Shown here: in pieces, positions 1 to 49,857 of the stretch
Numbering within the stretch: the stretch's first letter is position 1
Layout: every line of letters starts with the position of its first letter
Sequence record: NC_010106.1
Direction: 5' to 3' (one strand)
Source: Escherichia phage phiEcoM-GJ1
Length of the DNA: 52,975 nt
Notes under the pieces: model-generated
The model's database searches: none
Told to the model about the DNA's origin: nothing
What the model saw: only the letters and a program-made list of their open reading frames with translations
Position numbers and translations under genes: made by a program

Positions 1-156
1 CGATTAAATGGGAGAAGAGATTCGATGCGTTAGCGTCGTTTCTCTTTGAGCTAGAATAAAATAAGTAAGTTTTCAATATTACTTATTCCCAATATTGCTA
101 CAATATTTAAAGTAATATTAGGAATGCGTAAAGTTCAAAACCAAATGGTACATGGT

Positions 157-211
157 CGGTCAACTGTATCTAGACATAGACTCGTTCACAATCGGTCAGC
201 TGTATCTAGCC
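157..211. repeat. two copies of a 19-bp direct repeat CGGTCA(A/G)CTGTATCTAG(A/C)C
   Basis: Copies at 157-175 and 193-211 with 2 mismatches, 36-bp spacing, in the ORF-free left end. Confidence 0.6.
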
Positions 212-287
212 GGAATTTGTTCGAACAGAAGTCCGACTATGTTATAAAAATTTTTTATATAATTTTTTTAATTTAAATATTGTTACG

Positions 288-395
288 GAATTAATGAGAC
301 TCAAATTGTTTCAATTACTCACTTCGTTCGTCCGATATTAATGAGACTAGAATTGTAACGATATTGACGAGACTAGAATTGTGGCGATATTATTT
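288..395 (+). promoter_or_regulatory. three tandem ~26-bp repeats; candidate host-RNAP early promoters or operators upstream of the RNAP gene
   Basis: ATTAATGAGACTCAAATTGT / ATTAATGAGACTAGAATTGT / ATTGACGAGACTAGAATTGT; the third copy gives TTGACG-N18-TATTAT; an AT-rich tract precedes at 236-290. Confidence 0.4.
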
Positions 396-654
396 TTATT
401 TTTGGGCCAGCGGGGAGGGGAAGCCCAACGTCCTATCGGACTTAAAATACGGTCCCTACCCCAACTTTTTCCTACAGCCTATCGGCTTTCAAACAACACC
501 AAGTTAGGTGCTTCGCTTATAGGTCAAGGTCAAAGTCTCCGTGCTGTTGTAACAATGGCACAGGTTTGTGATATTAGTTGGAAGTGAATTGTGTAATGGC
601 TACGCTATTATAATCCGTTTCAGTTAAATCATACACAATCTTGGAGACTTACAA

Positions 655-2601
655 ATGACTACTATCACCACTCAAACTATCAAATCCGTTGTTCCTGCTA
701 TCACTGCTCTGGTATACCGTGCCAAAGAGAAACAGAACTATATGCAGCCTCAGACTTGTGCTATTGCTGCCTTAGCCATCTTCAAGATGATGACCTCTTT
801 CACTCGTGATGATGTTATCCCAGCCATTGCAATGGTTGAACTGGCTTCTGCTTCTATTGCTGATGCCAACCGTTATAACAACGACCTGAAAGCAATGCAC
901 TATGTTGACCCAGCTATCAACCTGATTGGTCTGGCTAAGCACTTTGGCTTCATCACCATGAACGAAGACAAATCGTTCCAGATGACTGATGCATGGATTG
1001 AACTGGTTACAACCAAAGATACCTCAGTTCCATTCACTGAGAAGGTAACAACTGAATCTCGTCGCAAGCCTTTCGTCAAAGGTGGCAAAGTTAAGCCATC
1101 CAAGACTCTGAAAGCTGCAATCGAATTCCTGCAAGATACTGCATATCACGTTGATGCTACAATGGTTAAGGTTATCTCTTCCATGATTGAGCAACGTACT
1201 TATGGTGGCTTGCAGATGCCAGAGGCAATCCAGACTGAACTCCATGTTTGGAACAATGCTGTAGCAATGGTTGGTCAGGACACTCTGTTCTCTGACTACT
1301 TTGCTGATAACCGTGGTCGTCTGTATCATGTTGCTTGTGCTGGTCCTAACCCACAATCATCTGACTTTGCTCGTTGCTTGTATTCCCACAATGTTGAGAA
1401 CACTGTGAGCAAGTTTAATGATGATGGTTCAACAACTCTGGCATACAACATGTTCATGCTTGAGCTGGAAGATATTGCTGGTGGAGACTGGACTTCTGCT
1501 AAACGTTTAACTTATGTTGCACAGAATCCTGTTGGTTCTTTGGCTCGTATGATGAACATGGACAAATCTGAACGTCCTTCTAAGCCATTCACTTATGTTC
1601 GATTAGCTCTGGATTGGTTCAAGTTTGAGACTACTGGTGAGTGCGATTCTCGCGTAGGCTTTGGCTTAGATGCTAAATGTTCTGGTACTCAATATCTGGC
1701 ATTCATTGCTGGTAACATGGAAATGGCTCGTGCAACAGGTCTGGTTGATTCTGAGACTAAGGCATCTGACCCATACCAGTTATCTCTTCGTGAACTGTTA
1801 AAGTTATTAGACCGTTCTTCAATGAAACCATCTCCTGAAATTATGGATGAATTCTTGAATCCGAAAGCTGGTCGTAAGTTTATCAAAACTCCATACATGG
1901 CTATCCAATATGGTGGTGGTAAAGCTGCATTAACTGGTTCTTCTGACTTTATCTCCTACATGACAGAAGCTCTCCAGATTCCTATGGAGAAAGCTGAGGC
2001 ATTTGCTGAACTGTGTGTAGAAGCAATCCATAACGCATTGGGTGAGAAGATTAACATGTTCATCGAGAAAGCTGCTGATGCTGCATACACTCGTTGTGTT
2101 GAACTTGGTAAAGAGTATATCACATATAAGCACACTGATGGCCAAGTTGTAATGAAGCCTTGCTTCCCATCTCGTGACATTTGTGATGCTTTCTCCATTC
2201 GCATTGATTCAGCAACTCGTGTAATCTTTGGCGTAATGTTGGAGGGTGAAGAGAAACCTTGGACCATTCGTGAGTCCAATCCAACTAAAGAAGAATTCAA
2301 ACGTACCTTCGTTGTTAACTACATTCAAGGTATTGATGCATTGGTTGCTCGTACTGTTGCAATCAAAGCTAAAGAAGCTGGTCTTCGTGGCTTTACTTCA
2401 ATTCACGATTGTTTCCGTTGCTGCTTAGCTGATGCTCCTCTCATGATGGAAGTAATTCGTTCTGCTTATATTGAAATCTTTGTTAATAATAATCAGTTTG
2501 AATCTCTGTCTAAGCAACTTGGTGGCATCAACATGTATCACGAGAACATCGTAACAGAAGAGCTTCTGATGAGCGAACACGCTTACTACTTCTGTCAATA
2601 A
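655..2601 (+). CDS. single-subunit T7-like DNA-dependent RNA polymerase, compact form
   Basis: 648-aa ORF with GGAG RBS; palm motifs in T7 RNAP order: GLDAKCSGTQ (motif A-like), KTPYMAIQYGGG (motif B-like), SIHDCFR (motif C-like); about 200 aa shorter at the N-terminus than T7 RNAP. Confidence 0.85.
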   Translation: MTTITTQTIKSVVPAITALVYRAKEKQNYMQPQTCAIAALAIFKMMTSFTRDDVIPAIAMVELASASIADANRYNNDLKAMHYVDPAINLIGLAKHFGFITMNEDKSFQMTDAWIELVTTKDTSVPFTEKVTTESRRKPFVKGGKVKPSKTLKAAIEFLQDTAYHVDATMVKVISSMIEQRTYGGLQMPEAIQTELHVWNNAVAMVGQDTLFSDYFADNRGRLYHVACAGPNPQSSDFARCLYSHNVENTVSKFNDDGSTTLAYNMFMLELEDIAGGDWTSAKRLTYVAQNPVGSLARMMNMDKSERPSKPFTYVRLALDWFKFETTGECDSRVGFGLDAKCSGTQYLAFIAGNMEMARATGLVDSETKASDPYQLSLRELLKLLDRSSMKPSPEIMDEFLNPKAGRKFIKTPYMAIQYGGGKAALTGSSDFISYMTEALQIPMEKAEAFAELCVEAIHNALGEKINMFIEKAADAAYTRCVELGKEYITYKHTDGQVVMKPCFPSRDICDAFSIRIDSATRVIFGVMLEGEEKPWTIRESNPTKEEFKRTFVVNYIQGIDALVARTVAIKAKEAGLRGFTSIHDCFRCCLADAPLMMEVIRSAYIEIFVNNNQFESLSKQLGGINMYHENIVTEELLMSEHAYYFCQ

Positions 2602-2608
2602 TGTAACA

Positions 2609-2638
2609 AGCCCTGTAGAGATACGGGGCTGTTCTTAT
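2609..2638 (+). terminator. candidate intrinsic terminator after RNAP gene
   Basis: 7-bp stem AGCCCTG/CGGGGCT (one G-U) with 8-nt loop, then T-rich GTTCTTATG. Confidence 0.45.
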
Positions 2639-2659
2639 GCATTAGTTGTTAATGAATTA
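2639..2659 (+). promoter_or_regulatory. copy of conserved ~20-bp motif (candidate phage-RNAP promoter), degenerate
   Basis: GCATTAGTTGTTAATGAAT, 40 bp upstream of the 2681 ORF; shares ATTAGTTG core. Confidence 0.35.
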
Positions 2660-2680
2660 AATCAAATTGGAGACTTTATA

Positions 2681-2848
2681 ATGTTCACAGTAACCTTAGT
2701 AACCTATTACGGTAAGCAAGTGTGTAAGAAGTTTGAGACTTTAGCAGAAGCAAGAGCCTTTGCAGCACGTGAAGAGAATATCTATGTAGAGTGTGAAATC
2801 ACAGATGGTGATAAAGTCTACGATGTAGTTAAGCCTGAACTCCACTGA
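2681..2848 (+). CDS. hypothetical small protein (55 aa)
   Basis: ORF MFTVTLVTYYGKQVCKKF... with GGAGACTT RBS identical in form to the RNAP RBS; below the ORF-track size cut-off. Confidence 0.5.
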   Translation: MFTVTLVTYYGKQVCKKFETLAEARAFAAREENIYVECEITDGDKVYDVVKPELH

Positions 2849-2860
2849 TTCCTAATATTC

Positions 2861-2889
2861 GGACAATATTGTTGCATGTAATATTGTCC
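2861..2889. repeat. perfect 10-bp inverted repeat GGACAATATT-N9-AATATTGTCC
   Basis: Arms 2861-2870 and 2880-2889 flank GTTGCATGT; lies just upstream of a motif copy. Confidence 0.6.
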
Positions 2890-3849
2890 CGATATTCGAC
2901 ATTAGTTGGATGTGAAGTAACAGAATACGGAGAAGTATTACTCACGTTGTTCGTGGGTTTCCGCATGTCATGTTGAAATCATTCTAGAAACATTTCAGCA
3001 TGTCAACTAAACACACAGCGTTGTAATGATGTGGCAATCATTGAACTCCCTGTCTTTGGCCGGACAAAGTTCCAGCAACCATGTGTGAAGTAGGATTATC
3101 ATTCGAAACTGTTCTTCCGGTGTTGAACTAACAACAGAACATCGTGTTAGCCATCTTGATTAAGTTACAAGAAAGTCAACAAACCTAAGCATGTTCACTT
3201 GTTTCAATATTGCTCCATCTCCTATTATCAAGGCCCACCCACAAGCCGGGAGATAACTTTGGCAAGACTGGAACTTTTGGACATGCTTCTTTCTTTCAAT
3301 CAGAATTCGAAAGAAGAGAAGAGTCGGAGCAAAGCCGCGAAACTAATCCCGTAGCCCGCCCCGATTTTGAGCAACAAATATTGTGACAATTGCGTCGCAG
3401 TATGGCATGTAAATATTGCTACAAATTGGCATGTTGGAATGTGGCAGAATTGTTAGAGGACTAATCACCTCGAAGATACAATCGTCTACCAATCTGGCAT
3501 GTTAATTTTGTAACAGTATTTGTGCCAATTTCGCATGTAATAAATGTATCAATATTCACCCAATATTCTTGCAACCCGCATGAATACTGGCTTCCAGCCA
3601 AGCGAAGGCTTTATCATCGCATGTAATATTGTGACAATATTGGGATAAAACCCCTTTATTTATTTCTGTAGTTTTGTATTAAATGGACGGTTTTCCGTAC
3701 CTGTTGCGCCACTTCTTGATGTGCCAAATACATTCCAAGATAGGAGCAAACCTGTAATTAATGATGCATGTTTAATTGTGACAAAATTCGTCTATTTGGC
3801 AGATGAGTTAGTTGCAATTAAGCATGTTCATTTATCATTAGTTGCATGT
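2874..3849. repeat. array of about 12 GCATGT-containing degenerate direct repeats in a ~1.1-kb ORF-free region
   Basis: GCATGT at 2874, 2963, 2998, 3189, 3405, 3429, 3497, 3533, 3619, 3766, 3822, 3844, mostly followed by A/T-rich (T)AAT(A/T)TTGT; second palindrome AATATTGTGACAATATT at 3625-3641. Confidence 0.55.
2899..2919 (+). promoter_or_regulatory. conserved motif ACATTAGTTGGATGTGAAG (candidate phage-RNAP promoter)
   Basis: Near-consensus copy; core ATTAGTTGGATGTGA. Confidence 0.45.
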
Positions 3850-3855
3850 GAATAA
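3835..3855 (+). promoter_or_regulatory. conserved motif copy ATTAGTTGCATGTGAATAAG
   Basis: About 190 bp upstream of the first small early gene at 4046. Confidence 0.45.
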
Positions 3856-4045
3856 GACCAAATCTCTGTAAATTCTGCTGAAATTGTGTGACAGATTTTA
3901 GAGAGATTATGTCTCCAAGCTAATCATTGTAGTTTTTCGGCACTTGCTGTGTCACATACTCCCTGCAACTTTAAGGTGGATTAAGGTAATACAAGACCTC
4001 CACAATCGTTCTGTAGGGAGTTTTCTTTTAACTTTGGAGAATAAA

Positions 4046-4294
4046 ATGGATACTGTGATTAAAGCTGCTTACTTCAAAGACCTGCCAGATGGACAAATCT
4101 TTACTGTTCGTTCTGTGAAGTGGATTAAAGTAAATGAGTCAGATAAGTACAATGCCGTAAAGTTCTTTGATTCAAGTAAGGCATGTACTTTTAGCGACAA
4201 TATTGTTGTCAATATTGAAGTCGAATTAGAGCCAGATGATTCAAATGATGAAATCATCCTGCGTAAAACTGTTGGATACACCAAAGGATTCTGA
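4046..4294 (+). CDS. hypothetical protein
   Basis: ORF with GGAG RBS before the internal ATG (MDTVIKAAYF...); the track ORF 3944..4294 probably over-extends 5'. Confidence 0.5.
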   Translation: MDTVIKAAYFKDLPDGQIFTVRSVKWIKVNESDKYNAVKFFDSSKACTFSDNIVVNIEVELEPDDSNDEIILRKTVGYTKGF

Positions 4295-26432: not shown

Positions 26433-26762
26433 ATGAAACTGTCCTCACCTGTTGTAGTAAATAACCGCAAAGTTAAATTTGCATATCTCAAGTCTAATGT
26501 CACCTCCACTGGTGGCGGGACTTATCTCACCCGTGCACTTGCAGTTCGCAACGAAACAGGTGCGGATGTTATCGTTTTCATGCTTCCTCATGGTGAAAAC
26601 ACAATCAAGAACGTCGAACGTATCAAGCGTGGGCGCGAAGATTTAATGTCGGCTGTTAAGCCGCTGATACTGCCATTTAAGATTGTGGTGGTTGTTGGTT
26701 CTACCCAAGCATATCTTGAAGATTTCTATAAAGATATGGCCTGGAGCGATATTAAATATTAA
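26433..26762 (+). CDS. hypothetical protein
   Basis: 109-aa ORF; could be a small terminase subunit by position, but there is no motif support. Confidence 0.5.
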   Translation: MKLSSPVVVNNRKVKFAYLKSNVTSTGGGTYLTRALAVRNETGADVIVFMLPHGENTIKNVERIKRGREDLMSAVKPLILPFKIVVVVGSTQAYLEDFYKDMAWSDIKY

Positions 26763-26779
26763 GCGACACGCGTAATTAG

Positions 26780-26805
26780 GGAGGCTATCTGGCCTCCTAT
26801 CTTAT
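26780..26805 (+). terminator. candidate terminator hairpin
   Basis: GGAGGC-TATCTG-GCCTCC followed by TATCTTATT; nested in an outer inverted repeat AAGCGAC...GTCGCTT. Confidence 0.4.
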
Positions 26806-26817
26806 TCGGAGTCGCTT

Positions 26818-27003
26818 ATGCGCACAATACAATGTCCTAACTGCCATTATGAAATTGCAGAAGATGATTTCATAACGCAGCAATGTCCTATCTGTGATTC
26901 ATACATGCCACTAAACCGCCTGTATTTAAAGGCCGATTCTGGTTTAGGCAGCATCATTCGCATCAATCCCGTGCAAACTCAGCCATTAGTGGATTGTGAT
27001 TAA
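26818..27003 (+). CDS. zinc-ribbon small protein
   Basis: CPNCHYEI ... CPICDSYM: two CxxC pairs; 61 aa. Confidence 0.5.
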   Translation: MRTIQCPNCHYEIAEDDFITQQCPICDSYMPLNRLYLKADSGLGSIIRINPVQTQPLVDCD

Positions 27004-27514
27004 AAACAAAGAGAACGAATCAATGTCAATACTAAGAGACAGATTGGTTCAATTACTTCACTACGACGAAGCTACTGGCATCTTTACATGGGTGCACGCC
27101 AACAGTAACAGAGTCAAAGTTGGTGATGTTGCAGGCACTATTGGAAGTGCTGGTTACATCTACATTAAGGTTGACGGGGTACGCTATGGCGCACACCAGC
27201 TTGCATTCATCTTTATGGGTGAAGAAGTTCCTGAAGTAATTGACCATGTAGATACCGTACCTTCCAATAATGCTTGGTACAATCTACGTCCTGCCACTTG
27301 CCAGAATAATTCCTATAACATTGGAATAACTTCCAGAAACACCTCTGGGATAAAGGGAGTTGGTTGGGATAAAGAGAGAAAGAAGTGGGTTGCCAAAGTC
27401 TCACTAAATGGGAAGCAACACACTCTTGGAAGATTTACATCTAAACTTGATGCTGAGGCAGCTGCCAAGCTGTTTAGAGAGAAGAACCACAAAGAATTTG
27501 CAAGGAGTCTGTGA
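26996..27514 (+). CDS. HNH-AP2 homing endonuclease (copy 3 of 3)
   Basis: HQLAFIFMGEEVPEVIDHVDTVPSNNAWYNLR ... GIKGVGWDKERKKWVAKV; immediately upstream of the terminase gene; start GTG 26996 or ATG 27023. Confidence 0.8.
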   Translation: MIKNKENESMSILRDRLVQLLHYDEATGIFTWVHANSNRVKVGDVAGTIGSAGYIYIKVDGVRYGAHQLAFIFMGEEVPEVIDHVDTVPSNNAWYNLRPATCQNNSYNIGITSRNTSGIKGVGWDKERKKWVAKVSLNGKQHTLGRFTSKLDAEAAAKLFREKNHKEFARSL

Positions 27515-47312: not shown

Positions 47313-48460
47313 TGACTCAACGTCTTAAGTTTAAATTTCCTTGGGCGCAAGACGGTGAAGTTGCAGACCCGGACTTGGATACCACTGCGCCAAGTTTTAT
47401 TGCAAACAGATATGCCGACTTAGGTTGGGAGGTTGAGAAGCCACCTAACGAGTGGCAGAACTTCTTATCTCAAATTAGTGATTTGAAGATTATCTCCCTT
47501 CTGTTTGGTGGCATTGCTGAGTTTGATTCAAGTGTGACTTATCAGGTTGGTGCAGTCTCTTCACTGAATGGTGTTGTTCGTATTAATACTTCCACGGGTT
47601 GGGAAGAGATAATGGACCTCAAGCAGGTTGACTATCTTAACGACGTTAGCAACTTGAGGTCTATCTATGATAACCACTTGGCTGCAACCAACCCGCACAA
47701 AGAAACTGTAGACACAATCACAGACAAAACTTATAACAAGTTTGCGATAGATAGTAGTTTTGGAAGTGCCACAGACCCAAGAACTATCGTGTACCACAAA
47801 CTACAGATGGGCCGTGTTCACCAAGAAACTCCCGAACAACTTGGAACACTTCCAACATCTGGTGGTAAGTTTACTGGTCCAGTGTCGCTGCTTGGTGGAA
47901 TGAAGTTTGGAACAAACATCACAATTCGACTGAACCCAGGAAATGGGAGAATTGAGATGCGTGCAGGTAATAGGATTCTGTCTATTGATGCACTTGGCAA
48001 TGTTCTGTGGAGCATAGTTGGTGGTGAAGAATATCCAGTAATGACGGAATTGAACTACTCAGAATTCCAGATTCGTTGGGGAAACAGGTTCGCACTACCG
48101 CAACCATACCTCGATATGAACATGAAAACATCTATCAACGATGCTATGTCGGTTCGTGGGTGGACTATTAGTACGTCGGATGCTCCAGTATTTAACCCCA
48201 AAGGTGGGATTAAAGTTGATGACAACACAATAACCTTTGAAGGTTTTGATGTTAACTGCCCAACATCAATCGTCATGTATGGAAGAGATGCTGCTGGAAA
48301 TCTTATTACAGCAAAGTCCGTAATGGCTCCATCTGCCGGATACACTTCAATGGCGACCCTGTTGACAAACATGGGATTCACTTCTGCCGTTTGGGTTGAA
48401 AGAATTACTTGCTACCCAACTCTTACCGCATATCAACAAACAATGTTAGTGAGGCCATAA
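47312..48460 (+). CDS. tail fibre protein (putative)
   Basis: 382-aa ORF with GGAG RBS downstream of the baseplate genes. Confidence 0.5.
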   Translation: MTQRLKFKFPWAQDGEVADPDLDTTAPSFIANRYADLGWEVEKPPNEWQNFLSQISDLKIISLLFGGIAEFDSSVTYQVGAVSSLNGVVRINTSTGWEEIMDLKQVDYLNDVSNLRSIYDNHLAATNPHKETVDTITDKTYNKFAIDSSFGSATDPRTIVYHKLQMGRVHQETPEQLGTLPTSGGKFTGPVSLLGGMKFGTNITIRLNPGNGRIEMRAGNRILSIDALGNVLWSIVGGEEYPVMTELNYSEFQIRWGNRFALPQPYLDMNMKTSINDAMSVRGWTISTSDAPVFNPKGGIKVDDNTITFEGFDVNCPTSIVMYGRDAAGNLITAKSVMAPSAGYTSMATLLTNMGFTSAVWVERITCYPTLTAYQQTMLVRP

Positions 48461-49857
48461 TGGCGATTCGTCCTAAACTGAACCGAGTCTGGACTTCAAA
48501 CAACTCTGTCGCAAGACGTGACCCAGGTGATGCGAAATATCTCCAGGGTTGGGTTGCAGAGATTCCAACTTACCAGGTTCTTAACTACCTACAATATAAG
48601 ATTGACACCACAATGCTTGCCCAAGCGGAGCGGGGAATCTTTGAGTGGGGTGATGATGTAAGTTATGGCGTTGGTAGTTTGGCTTGGGACGAAACAAACA
48701 AAACGATTTATGTTTGTACTGCAACCAACCCAAGTAAAACCTTACGCCCAAGTGCCAACTCTGCACAGTGGAGTCCAAGCTCCATCCAAGTTTCTCGTGC
48801 AAATTACGACTCAATTGTTGCAGCAATCAATGCACATATTTCAGACGTAACTACAAACCCACACCGAGTAACTGCTGCACAAATTGGTGCATATAACAAA
48901 GCAGAGCTGAATGCAATTGTTGCAAACTATCGTGCAATGGTTTTAGCACACACCACAGATTACAACAACCCACACCAACTCACTGCAACTCAGGTTGGTG
49001 CTGTTCCTGTAACTGGTGGTGCATACACTGGTGAAGTTACTTTCACAACCGTGTATCTGAATGATTCCAAGACTGCCCAGATTGTTAATGACGGTGGTCT
49101 GTATCTTCGCAATGGTAGCTACTATCTTGGAATCAGCGGGACCACAGGAAATCCAGAGGCAGGAACTGCTGCAAGCAAGTCCCGGATAGTCACAGAACTC
49201 ACCTTCCCAGACTTGAAAGCTGCACAAGAGGCTGAATATGCGGTAGAAGCGCCAGACTATGAAATGGCACTAATAGGTTCTGTAAACATACTTCGTGGCA
49301 CAGGAACATTCAGTACCGGAAGCTCCGAGCCTATGTACTTGGCATCATCTGGTGATGCCCTAACATTCGACAGCTCACCAACCAGCCCATCACAATCATT
49401 CAACGCCTCTTCACAACTTCCTGCTGGCTCGAGTATGACGGTCTGTGCCGATGTTATGAGGGTGTCACAGTCTGATACAAGTGATGGCAACTGGCAGCTA
49501 AGTTTCGGCACCGCAGATTTCAATATCACCATTGGGTACAATGGGTATACGACCATTAGGTACAGGAACCTCGCAGGAAATATTGCTACAATATTGCAGG
49601 GTGTAATCTCTCAAGATTTGAAAACTGTAGGTGTGTGGAACAGGGTGTCGGCAACACTTTCTGGAAGCACTATGAAGGTGTTTGTAAACGGTGCACTGCT
49701 ATTCTCCATAGAGCAAGAAGTGGGTGTTGCAGTGGGGAGAGCGCCATTTATAACTAAATGGGCTATGGTTGGGGCTACCACAAACTCTAGAATGTCTATT
49801 AGGTCTTTTAGGTTGTGGAACTCGGCACTAACAGATAAACAGATTTCAACTTTATAG
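48460..49857 (+). CDS. tail fibre/receptor-binding protein with C-terminal lectin-like (LamG/concanavalin-like) region
   Basis: Start ATG 48460 after GAGG; the C-terminal ~200 aa are a beta-sandwich-type Ser/Thr/Gly-rich sequence ending ...RSFRLWNSALTDKQIS. Confidence 0.5.
   Translation: MAIRPKLNRVWTSNNSVARRDPGDAKYLQGWVAEIPTYQVLNYLQYKIDTTMLAQAERGIFEWGDDVSYGVGSLAWDETNKTIYVCTATNPSKTLRPSANSAQWSPSSIQVSRANYDSIVAAINAHISDVTTNPHRVTAAQIGAYNKAELNAIVANYRAMVLAHTTDYNNPHQLTATQVGAVPVTGGAYTGEVTFTTVYLNDSKTAQIVNDGGLYLRNGSYYLGISGTTGNPEAGTAASKSRIVTELTFPDLKAAQEAEYAVEAPDYEMALIGSVNILRGTGTFSTGSSEPMYLASSGDALTFDSSPTSPSQSFNASSQLPAGSSMTVCADVMRVSQSDTSDGNWQLSFGTADFNITIGYNGYTTIRYRNLAGNIATILQGVISQDLKTVGVWNRVSATLSGSTMKVFVNGALLFSIEQEVGVAVGRAPFITKWAMVGATTNSRMSIRSFRLWNSALTDKQISTL

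Follow-up and report, generated by a model that had tools for sequence, protein, structure and literature searches.

A gene-free region with hexamers on one strand

Downstream of its single-subunit RNAP gene, Escherichia phage phiEcoM-GJ1 (NC_010106.1) carries about a kilobase of DNA in which an initial annotation, made from the letters alone, saw no open reading frame (ORF) and a dense set of GCATGT repeats and perfect palindromes. The annotation offered three readings, a protein-binding array, an origin of replication or a cluster of weak promoters, and we asked which of them, if any, describes these repeats. The window was the entire genome record of 52,975 nucleotides. Judged by its sequence, the genome is of the Carltongylesvirus type, within the Chaseviridae; Carltongylesvirus phages (ST32, SA91KD, flopper, Mangalitsa and others) match its first 8 kb at 86-92% identity, and all of its large genes are encoded on the + strand.

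The region is indeed free of ORFs of any appreciable length: within 2849-4045 (1,197 bp) the longest has at most 58 aa, and no convincing one appears before 4036-4048. Divergence among relatives at the three codon positions was 0.353, 0.349 and 0.335 in the array region versus 0.195, 0.148 and 0.442 in the RNAP gene, and because divergence in the array region lacks the three-base periodicity of the RNAP gene, it is non-coding. Hidden small genes were discarded on the same absence of codon periodicity and on tblastn matches that fell in all six frames, as conserved DNA would give; ATG-TAA mini-ORFs showed no conservation. The array had been placed immediately downstream of the RNAP gene, which it does follow, but a terminator and a 55-aa ORF intervene (Table 1).

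Table 1. Features of the region after the RNAP gene of phiEcoM-GJ1 and of its surroundings (window positions)
Feature	Position	Strand	Remarks
Second non-coding region	60-441	+	just left of DTR start; box 2 at 95, 280, 353, 379
Single-subunit RNAP gene	655-2601	+	648 aa
Terminator, hairpin and T-run	2609-2630	+	3' of RNAP gene; upstream limit of control region; annotated as terminator in SA91KD
55-aa ORF	2681-2848		between RNAP gene and array
E1 (GCATGT 2874-2879)	2861-2889		within palindrome GGACAATATT-N9-AATATTGTCC
Promoter-like motif copy cgaCATTAGTTGGATGTGAAGtaac	2894-2921	+	inside DTR; points rightward through array
E2 (2963) and E3 (2998)	2963-3003	+	GCATGTCA type; both kept in all relatives examined
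Small hairpin, TGTC/GACA stem	3051-3066	+	loop TTTGGCCG; compensatory changes
E4 hexamer and box 2 GCATGTTCACTTGTTTCAATATT	3189-3211	+
Block TCCTATTATCAAGGCCCACCCACAAGCCGGGAG	3220-3252	+	most conserved block of the region; 70-100 nt inside terminal-repeat end
First box 2 outside terminal repeat, AATATTGTGACAATTGC	3377-3393	+	perfect palindrome in close relatives
Core array: E5 3405, E6 3429, E7 3497, E8 3533, E9 3578	3405-3590	+	E9 is the variant GCATGA
Hairpin GCGA-AGGCTTTATCA-TCGC	3602-3620	+	3' arm overlaps E10; stem co-varies
E10 and perfect palindrome AATATTGTGACAATATT	3619-3645	+	followed by GGGA
T-rich tract (3646-3683), then TGGTCGG-type block TGGACGGTTTTCCGTAC (3684-3701)	3646-3701	+	block conserved
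E11 (GCATGTTTAATTGTGACAAAATT) and E12 (3822)	3766-3827	+
Promoter-like motif copy ATTAGTTGCATGTGAA	3830-3857	+	contains E13 (3844-3849); PWM 30.7 bits; annotated as promoter in SA91KD
Strong hairpin and U-tract	3958-4029	+	just before ribosome-binding site of first early gene
First early gene	4036-4039 (ribosome-binding site), 4046 (ATG)	+

Twelve GCATGT hexamers had been counted between 2874 and 3849, and all twelve are there, every one on the + strand (2874, 2963, 2998, 3189, 3405, 3429, 3497, 3533, 3619, 3766, 3822 and 3844, within 2849-4045). The base composition of the array region predicts 0.26 copies per strand, and the - strand of the region holds a single one, at 3281-3286. Genome-wide the hexamer is not over-represented (33 observed versus 40.5 expected); it is extremely clustered, since just 2.26% of the genome holds 12 of the 20 copies found on the + strand (binomial P = 1.9e-15).

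In the array the hexamer is usually part of a bipartite element, GCATGT-N4/5-TTGTGACA followed by A/T-rich sequence, the TTGTGACA part being termed box 2. The initial annotation had most hexamers followed by A/T-rich sequence like AATATTGT; only about 4 of the 12 have AATATTGT proper, and the general consensus is GCATGT-nAwwTTG-ttaCaA (aaTTtnGCATGTnAwwTTGttaCaA in a logo from 103 copies). Throughout the core array, E5-E9 are each followed by A/T-rich sequence and a GNNNCA box, and a further conserved block lies at 3437-3478. Spacings between hexamer elements are irregular (24, 68, 36, 45, 41 and 147 bp). Conserved helical phasing at ~11.5 bp was rejected, as an A/T periodicity near 11.75 bp is marginal in phiEcoM-GJ1 and absent in most relatives.

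Both palindromes that had been pointed out, GGACAATATT-N9-AATATTGTCC and AATATTGTGACAATATT (3625-3641), are present exactly as described. With up to three mismatches, the 17-mer AATATTGTGACAATATT has 15 matches versus 0.24 expected. Within it, TTGTGACA at 3628-3635 is invariant in 15 of 15 genomes, and the palindromy is not conserved. Genomes that lack a small insertion show the box order box 2, N5/6, GCATGT, N4/5, box 2, and because the boxes alternate in this way, the perfect palindromes are a by-product of A/T-rich flanks around GTGACA.

Some parts of the region also appear to be conserved as hairpins. The one at 3051-3066 is 100% paired, with three of its four pairs changed on both sides; its score was reached by 0 of 500 shuffles, and slid controls were near zero. 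The hairpin at 3602-3620 is 92% paired, with 19 cells changed on both sides and again 0 of 500 shuffles, and it is kept in genomes without GCATGT at that position as well. The third, at 3958-4029, folds at -24.5 kcal/mol (z = -3.9) and has counterparts in Faunus, PM1, phiA050 and L018 (five genomes folded). From the compensatory changes in the first two hairpins, together with the 3' hairpin and its U-tract, we conclude that some of the region at least is under constraint in single-stranded form, as would be expected if it is transcribed from the promoter-like site at 2901. A GAGG/CCTC hairpin at 3456-3471 did not hold across genera when the alignment was read. A globally structured RNA was rejected on the weak RNAalifold consensus (-14 kcal/mol over 483 columns), and an Rfam covariance-model search of the region returned no match, only two sub-threshold microRNA chance hits.

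The array motif differs from the promoter-like motif of the genome

SA91KD, a close relative, annotates a dispersed sequence motif as 'promoter of phiEcoM-GJ1', and the ICTV profile of the Chaseviridae states that RNAP promoters have not yet been identified. We built a PWM of this promoter-like motif from eight dispersed sites (consensus aaCATTAGTTGGATGTGAAg). All eight strong sites are on the + strand (573, 2901, 3837, 7048, 10641, 13126, 21900 and 41984), as are two weaker ones at 2641 and 10500; one of the still weaker matches that pass the cutoff is on the - strand. Gaps between ORFs contain or adjoin six of the eight strong sites, and some sites are 20-40 nt upstream of a ribosome-binding site. 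The copy at 2894-2921 is the best in the genome (35.7 bits), is kept in relatives of several genera and is annotated as a promoter in SA91KD.

When the hexamers of the array were scored with this PWM, 11 of the 12 GCATGT sites fell below 10 bits, and just the copy at 3844 belongs to the promoter-like motif. The array motif, for its part, is essentially absent elsewhere in the genome. There are thus two sequence classes, a region-specific GCATGT family and a distinct, dispersed promoter-like motif, and the array elements were dropped as candidates for ordinary phage promoters since the PWM of the dispersed sites does not recognize them.

A scan for sigma-70 -35/-10 pairs (16-18 bp spacing) found 15 sites in 8 kb versus 20 expected, with none good on the + strand in the array, and a cluster of sigma-70 promoters was rejected for this lack of enrichment. 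The extended -10-like pattern (TGn, then A at hexamer position 2 or -11, and T at position 6 or -7) occurs in 59 of the 103 elements (57%), and its positions differ between orthologous sites, at which GCATGT stays the same. Sigma-54 sites were set aside because in TGGCAT-N-TTGC the GG is 2 nt too distant from the GC, and TGG is found in some copies only. SP6-like specificity of the phage RNAP was also rejected, as this enzyme is not close to those of the SP6 type; its nearest outside relatives are 21-25% identical and belong to other podophages. The proposed cluster of weak promoters does not agree well with these comparisons.

The layout is conserved across the Chaseviridae while the motif changes

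Conservation of the array in related phages had been named as a check, and the array is kept by position. Ten relatives in at least seven genera carry it, with 103 + strand versus 3 - strand copies of GCATGT, at 8.7 per kb versus 0.39 per kb per strand in flanking sequence. All Cleopatravirinae relatives examined (4HA13, Faunus, PM1, PP101, phiA050, Y2, SSEM1, Myduc and several uncultivated genomes, with RNAP identity down to 62%) have, next to the RNAP gene on its 3' side, ~1.1-1.35 kb of ORF-free DNA that contains 8-13 copies of GCATGT on the + strand. The elements occupy orthologous positions, the hexamer being invariant while neighboring bases vary, and in E5-E7 it is invariant in 15 genomes. 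The block at 3220-3252 has 0.83-0.98 identity to 12 diverse relatives, with invariant alignment columns.

More distant phages keep the arrangement with other repeats. Aeromonas phage ZPAH14 (Shantouvirus) and Vibrio phage VPs20 (Nefertitivirinae) have RNAPs ~34-36% identical to that of phiEcoM-GJ1 (ZPAH14, 34%), and in both a gene-free stretch of ~1 kb again follows the RNAP gene. The repeat of ZPAH14 is GTATGAGAC, in five copies on the + strand only, plus a GTATGATAC variant (57-kb record); it is confined to this gene-free stretch save for one TATGAGAC inside a gene. In VPs20 the stretch holds seven copies of GTATGA. That a distant subfamily keeps the layout and changes the motif points away from a conserved host factor and toward a phage protein that co-evolves with its sites. 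Among the matches listed in an IMG/VR scan for GCATGTN4TTGTGACA, arrays occurred only in Chaseviridae contigs.

By its pattern in the sequence, the GCATGT array is a set of recognition sites, not chance or junk. The general proposal of a protein-binding array therefore holds in this form, on the 103:3 strand bias, the positional conservation and the replacement of the repeat in the distant subfamily. A Pfam scan of 29 early and middle proteins recognized no initiator or DNA-binding domain and gave no candidate binder. An AP2-domain binder was also considered and rejected: in VPs20, the 'AP2' gene that follows the gap has HNH_3 as its only match, and the HNH-AP2 ORF of phiEcoM-GJ1 looks like a mobile endonuclease.

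The array straddles the inferred right end of the terminal repeat

Direct terminal repeats in the Chaseviridae are ~2.3-3.1 kb long (~3 kbp in the ICTV profile). The direct terminal repeat (DTR) of phiEcoM-GJ1, as deduced from six relatives, would start at ~438-442 and end at 3321-3331, a length of ~2.9 kb. PhageTerm repeats of Mangalitsa (1-3234) and 4HA13 (1-3120) map to 442-3321 and ~443-3331, and that of Myduc (1-3202) has its right end at ~3325. The records of PM1 and Y2 contain both repeat copies, with the right end at ~3325 and the left at ~438 in PM1, and the right end 491 nt past the RNAP gene and ~67 nt before the core array in Y2 (left end ~439); the Faunus record starts at the equivalent of 3322. 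We infer that the boundary 3321/3322 is the physical right end of the virion DNA. PYps23T differs, its experimentally derived repeat (2,339 bp) mapping to ~583-2910.

The RNAP gene is the only large gene inside the DTR, and the gene-free array region straddles the right DTR boundary, with E1-E4 inside and E5-E13 outside. Among the stretches of the array that lack a hexamer, the one with this boundary is the largest; E4 is 127 nt to the left of the boundary and E5 84 nt to its right, the first box 2 stands 55 nt beyond it, and the core array thus starts 55-84 nt to the right of 3321. ZPAH14 is laid out alike: its terminal repeat ends at 3373, with four motif copies on the left of this point and two on its right.

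The second non-coding region, on the left side of the DTR, is conserved across genera and contains a AATATTGCTACAATATT palindrome, three tandem 26-bp repeats and an AT-rich tract at ~243-280. The box 2 pattern links the two sides: 12 of its 18 + strand matches genome-wide are in the two non-coding regions that flank the DTR, and those on the left end ~50 nt short of the DTR start (~442). No GCATGT was found near the left DTR boundary. We judge the context of the DTR boundary to be the strongest clue to what the array may do.

A possible role in forming or packaging the genome ends

The reading we tentatively prefer, while giving it somewhat less than an even chance, is that of a protein-binding array that acts in cis when the terminal-repeat ends are formed or the DNA is packaged, analogous to the SRL/SRR repeats of T7. 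The bipartite GCATGT elements would be direct-oriented sites for a phage-encoded, co-evolving, sequence-specific protein, and the array and the left-side box 2 repeats would bracket the 2.9-kb DTR with its RNAP gene. Acting in cis on replicated concatemers, the elements may assemble or position the maturation machinery (terminase and partners), which would produce the genome end at ~3321. Transcription that starts at the promoter-like site 2901 and reads through may also play a part, in the way that T7 RNAP does at the concatemer junction of its own phage. What speaks for this is the right end of the DTR, which in six relatives falls between two hexamer clusters, and the box 2 repeats common to both flanking non-coding regions; the kept layout in ZPAH14, the strict constraint on GCATGT with its strand bias and density, and the parallel in T7 count in its favor as well. 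Against it, the repeat of PYps23T maps elsewhere, the lack of GCATGT at the left DTR boundary means that a single recognition system for both cuts is not evident, an array of ~1 kb is large for a packaging site, and four of its elements lie inside the DTR. Conserved synteny of RNAP gene, gap and early genes could also put the boundary in the gap without any functional link. In the Chaseviridae papers we read, we found no account of how the repeat ends arise.

The array is a poor fit to a classical iteron origin and to a cluster of ordinary promoters alike. The iteron origin put forward at the outset sits poorly with the irregular spacing, with the Pfam scan, in which no initiator was recognized among the 29 proteins, and with DnaA boxes that occur at chance frequency (8 genome-wide versus 8.8 expected, one of them in the array region); the origin features that are present are of the T7 type. 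We consider it unlikely, though, that this is a T7-type primary origin, in which RNAP starting from 2901 would open or prime the DNA at the T-rich tract and the repeats would help load a T7-like primase-helicase. The position directly after the RNAP gene matches that of the T7 primary origin, a promoter-like site lies upstream, the conserved T-rich tract is followed by the TGGTCGG-type block (a match at the level of sequence), and the gene-free kilobase is still there where RNAP identity has dropped to 34%. The replication module resembles that of T7 too, SA91KD having annotated genes for a primase-helicase, a family A polymerase, an SSB, an exonuclease and a ligase and no annotated initiator. 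However, such an origin leaves the invariant hexamer and its tie to the repeat boundary unexplained, we know of no repeated recognition hexamers or iteron-like array in T7 origins, the left non-coding region with its AT-rich tract and tandem repeats is at least as origin-like, and GC skew was uninformative. Also doubtful is an array for transcription control, whether as a second class of promoter or binding site for the phage RNAP, as extended -10 sites for the host RNAP, or as sites for a regulator that times the early genes. Every element points toward the early genes, the best copy, AATATTGTGACAATATTG, agrees with the SP6 promoter ATTTAGGTGACACTATAG at 12 of 18 positions with GTGACA and TAT in register, more than half of the elements carry the extended -10-like pattern, and the co-varying hairpin at 3602-3620 precedes the last strong element. 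These points have to be set against the low PWM scores and the near absence of the array motif from the rest of the genome, the lack of enrichment in sigma-70 sites, the drift of the -10-like positions around a fixed GCATGT, an RNAP that is not close to that of SP6, and the strong hairpin and U-tract that stand between the array and the first gene.

The same hairpins could mean that the region works as RNA: a leader or non-coding RNA of ~1.1 kb, starting from 2901, in which GCAUGU repeats bind or titrate an RNA-binding protein and the hairpins provide structure or processing sites. The strict + strand bias, the upstream promoter-like site followed by 1.1 kb without an ORF, the two hairpins with compensatory changes and the conserved hairpin and U-tract at the 3' end would all suit such an RNA, but with no Rfam match, no global structure by RNAalifold, and no explanation for the tie to the repeat boundary or for box 2 in the left region, we regard it as quite improbable. 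We give still less credence to a T5-like injection stop or hand-over, in which the DTR with the RNAP gene would enter first and entry would pause at the array until phage functions finish the transfer. The array does lie at the inner end of a long repeat whose sole large gene encodes the RNAP, and T5 has a comparable untranslated region rich in repeats and palindromes (bioRxiv 10.1101/866236); on the other side, the DnaA-box array is absent from phiEcoM-GJ1, and we found no report of two-step entry in the Chaseviridae papers we read. The least probable of our proposals would combine entry with end formation. The DTR would be a self-contained first-entry module (RNAP gene and promoter), and the array just beyond it a directional nucleoprotein barrier built with the putative co-evolving protein, which would halt DNA entry until new RNAP from 2901 pulls in the remaining genome and which would later stop the translocating terminase, such that the cut at 3321 sets the 2.9-kb repeat length. 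If true, this barrier would join T5-like two-step entry with T7-like RNAP-driven internalization in a contractile-tailed phage.

Whichever function applies, the analysis separates two directly testable classes of sequence, a gene-proximal, genome-wide motif that behaves like an RNAP promoter, and an array tied to the repeat boundary, which keeps its layout from one subfamily to the next but not its motif. This array offers a defined 300-bp bait (~3370-3650) for finding the candidate binding protein and a defined target for asking how the 2.9-kb terminal repeat is measured and cut. For annotators, it locates what would be the true genome ends in phiEcoM-GJ1-type records that were deposited circularly permuted.

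Comparison with known systems

Clusters of short repeats near a functional point are found in several systems. In pac sites of the P1 type, hexamer clusters flank the cut, and the hexamers carry Dam sites and span ~160 bp. Iteron origins and these pac sites resemble the phiEcoM-GJ1 region in their clusters of several short direct repeats to either side of a functional point, and differ from it in that no cognate Rep or initiator was found among the 29 proteins scanned and in the irregular spacing of the phiEcoM-GJ1 repeats, where the T-rich tract comes after the last strong element. The T7 primary origin consists of phage promoters and an AT-rich region after gene 1; at the level of sequence, phiEcoM-GJ1 shares with it the position right after the RNAP gene, the upstream phage promoter, the A/T-rich tract and a T7-like replisome.

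In T5, the injection stop signal takes up a large part of the long left terminal repeat that is untranslated and full of repeats and palindromes, and 25 T5-like phages have conserved it (bioRxiv 10.1101/866236). The phiEcoM-GJ1 region is likewise large and untranslated, with repeats, inverted repeats and palindromes, is associated with a long terminal repeat and is conserved group-wide. It differs in that the T5 region lies inside the repeat and has eight ordered DnaA boxes, whereas that of phiEcoM-GJ1 straddles the boundary and has neither an ordered array nor any enrichment of such boxes.

For the making of genome ends, T7 offers two precedents: a complex of RNAP and lysozyme paused at the concatemer junction recruits the terminase proteins gp18 and gp19 (PMC3276506), and T7 phagemids require an origin, a pac site and the terminal repeat (PMC13236587). 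In the T7 genome (NC_001604), which we checked directly, ~12 same-strand CCTAAAG-type heptamers occupy 175-341, to the right of the 160-bp left terminal repeat, with the promoter phiOL at 405 after this left array and further heptamer copies to the left of the right repeat. These are the SRL/SRR repeats, and they differ from the phiEcoM-GJ1 array in being heptamers with a regular spacing of ~13 nt over ~170 bp, beside a repeat of only 160 bp; phiEcoM-GJ1 has instead a hexamer with a second box, in a motif unrelated to CCTAAAG, irregular spacing over ~1 kb and a 2.9-kb repeat that carries the RNAP gene, and there is no sequence similarity between the two. To our knowledge, the SRL/SRR repeats have no established function. 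By analogy of layout they are nevertheless the closest architectural match: both phages have ~12 short direct repeats on one strand that lie outside the terminal repeat and adjoin both of its boundaries (in phiEcoM-GJ1, boundaries inferred from relatives), some copies inside the repeat, and a phage promoter after the array and before the first early gene.

A conserved block and a promoter-like motif around the RNAP gene

The best-conserved stretch of the non-coding region past the RNAP gene was TCCTATTATCAAGGCCCACCCACAAGCCGGGAG, which was kept across 12 diverse relatives and was more conserved than the RNAP coding sequence. Because this block lies just inside the end of the terminal repeat, we consider it, on sequence grounds, a candidate recognition element for the cut site.

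The motif aaCATTAGTTGGATGTGAAg is dispersed across the genome. Six of its eight strong copies lie within or next to inter-ORF gaps, some copies have a ribosome-binding site 20-40 nt downstream, and the orthologue of the copy past the RNAP gene is kept in relatives from several genera. Judged by sequence context, the motif behaves like a promoter of the phage RNAP; the ICTV profile lists the promoters of Chaseviridae as not yet identified. A copy is also present 5' of the RNAP gene, within the terminal repeat, in eight of the nine genomes of alignment A5 (window 430-660), where its position varies; in the remaining relative (L018), the assignment is ambiguous. This upstream copy suggests that the phage RNAP also transcribes its own gene.

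In the interval from the last promoter-like site (3837) to the first early gene's ribosome-binding site, we found a strong hairpin with a U-tract, and an equivalent was present in four relatives of other genera. It might act as an attenuator, form the 3' terminus of an RNA of ~180 nt, or serve as a 5' stabilizer or processing site.

Sequence features of the window and their context
Feature	Window position	Context
Conserved block TCCTATTATCAAGGCCCACCCACAAGCCGGGAG	3220-3252	70-100 nt inside terminal-repeat end; 0.83-0.98 identity
Promoter-like motif aaCATTAGTTGGATGTGAAg	573, 2641, 2901, 3837, 7048, 10500, 10641, 13126, 21900, 41984	+ strand
Palindrome AATATTGCTACAATATT	91-107	left non-coding region
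GGTCGGTCAACTGTATCT-like sequence, two copies	about 157-220	left non-coding region
Near-pure A/T tract, ~40 nt	243-280	left non-coding region
Three 26-bp tandem repeats with sigma-70-like TTGACG-18-TATTAT	364-393 (TTGACG-18-TATTAT)	left non-coding region
G-run		left non-coding region
Palindrome GTCCTATCGGAC		left non-coding region, adjoining left cut
AGCCTATCGGCT		35 nt inside left cut
Strong hairpin with U-tract	3958-4029	-24.5 kcal/mol
HNH_3 + AP2 domain ORF	26996-27514	directly upstream of large terminase gene

Ends of the terminal repeat

A second conserved non-coding region (window 1-441) lies to the left of the repeat start. Its palindrome AATATTGCTACAATATT has an identical second copy at 49579-49595, within a long + strand ORF (48409-49857) of the late region.

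The repeat experimentally reported for Yersinia phage PYps23T (L005), of 2,339 bp, maps to window ~583-2910, which places both of its ends inside 16-nt copies of the promoter-like motif (573-588 and 2901-2916), whereas the repeat of other relatives, taken from PhageTerm and two-copy records, corresponds to about 442-3321. One possibility is that this discrepancy reflects template switching or recombination from one motif copy to another during the ligation-PCR assay.

Terminase neighborhood and related phages

The HNH_3/AP2 ORF, which sits between the large terminase gene and small candidate terminase-partner ORFs (26433-27003), probably encodes a homing endonuclease.

Among the database records, PP952070.1 ("Staphylococcus phage Pel53", stated host Staphylococcus hyicus) was 89% identical in nucleotide sequence to phiEcoM-GJ1 across 8 kb, and its RNAP was 95% identical in amino acids to that of this E. 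coli-type Carltongylesvirus; from these matches, its host label looks doubtful.

In the distantly related Aeromonas phage ZPAH14 (sequences L043/L046/L047), positions 3132-3452 hold five copies of GTATGAGAC and one GTATGATAC variant, on the + strand only. Apart from one intragenic TATGAGAC, GTATGAGAC is restricted to the gene-free region past the RNAP gene; the GTATGAGAC/GTATGATAC copies straddle the repeat end at 3373, and CATAGTTAC-type motifs are common to both regions flanking the ZPAH14 terminal repeat.
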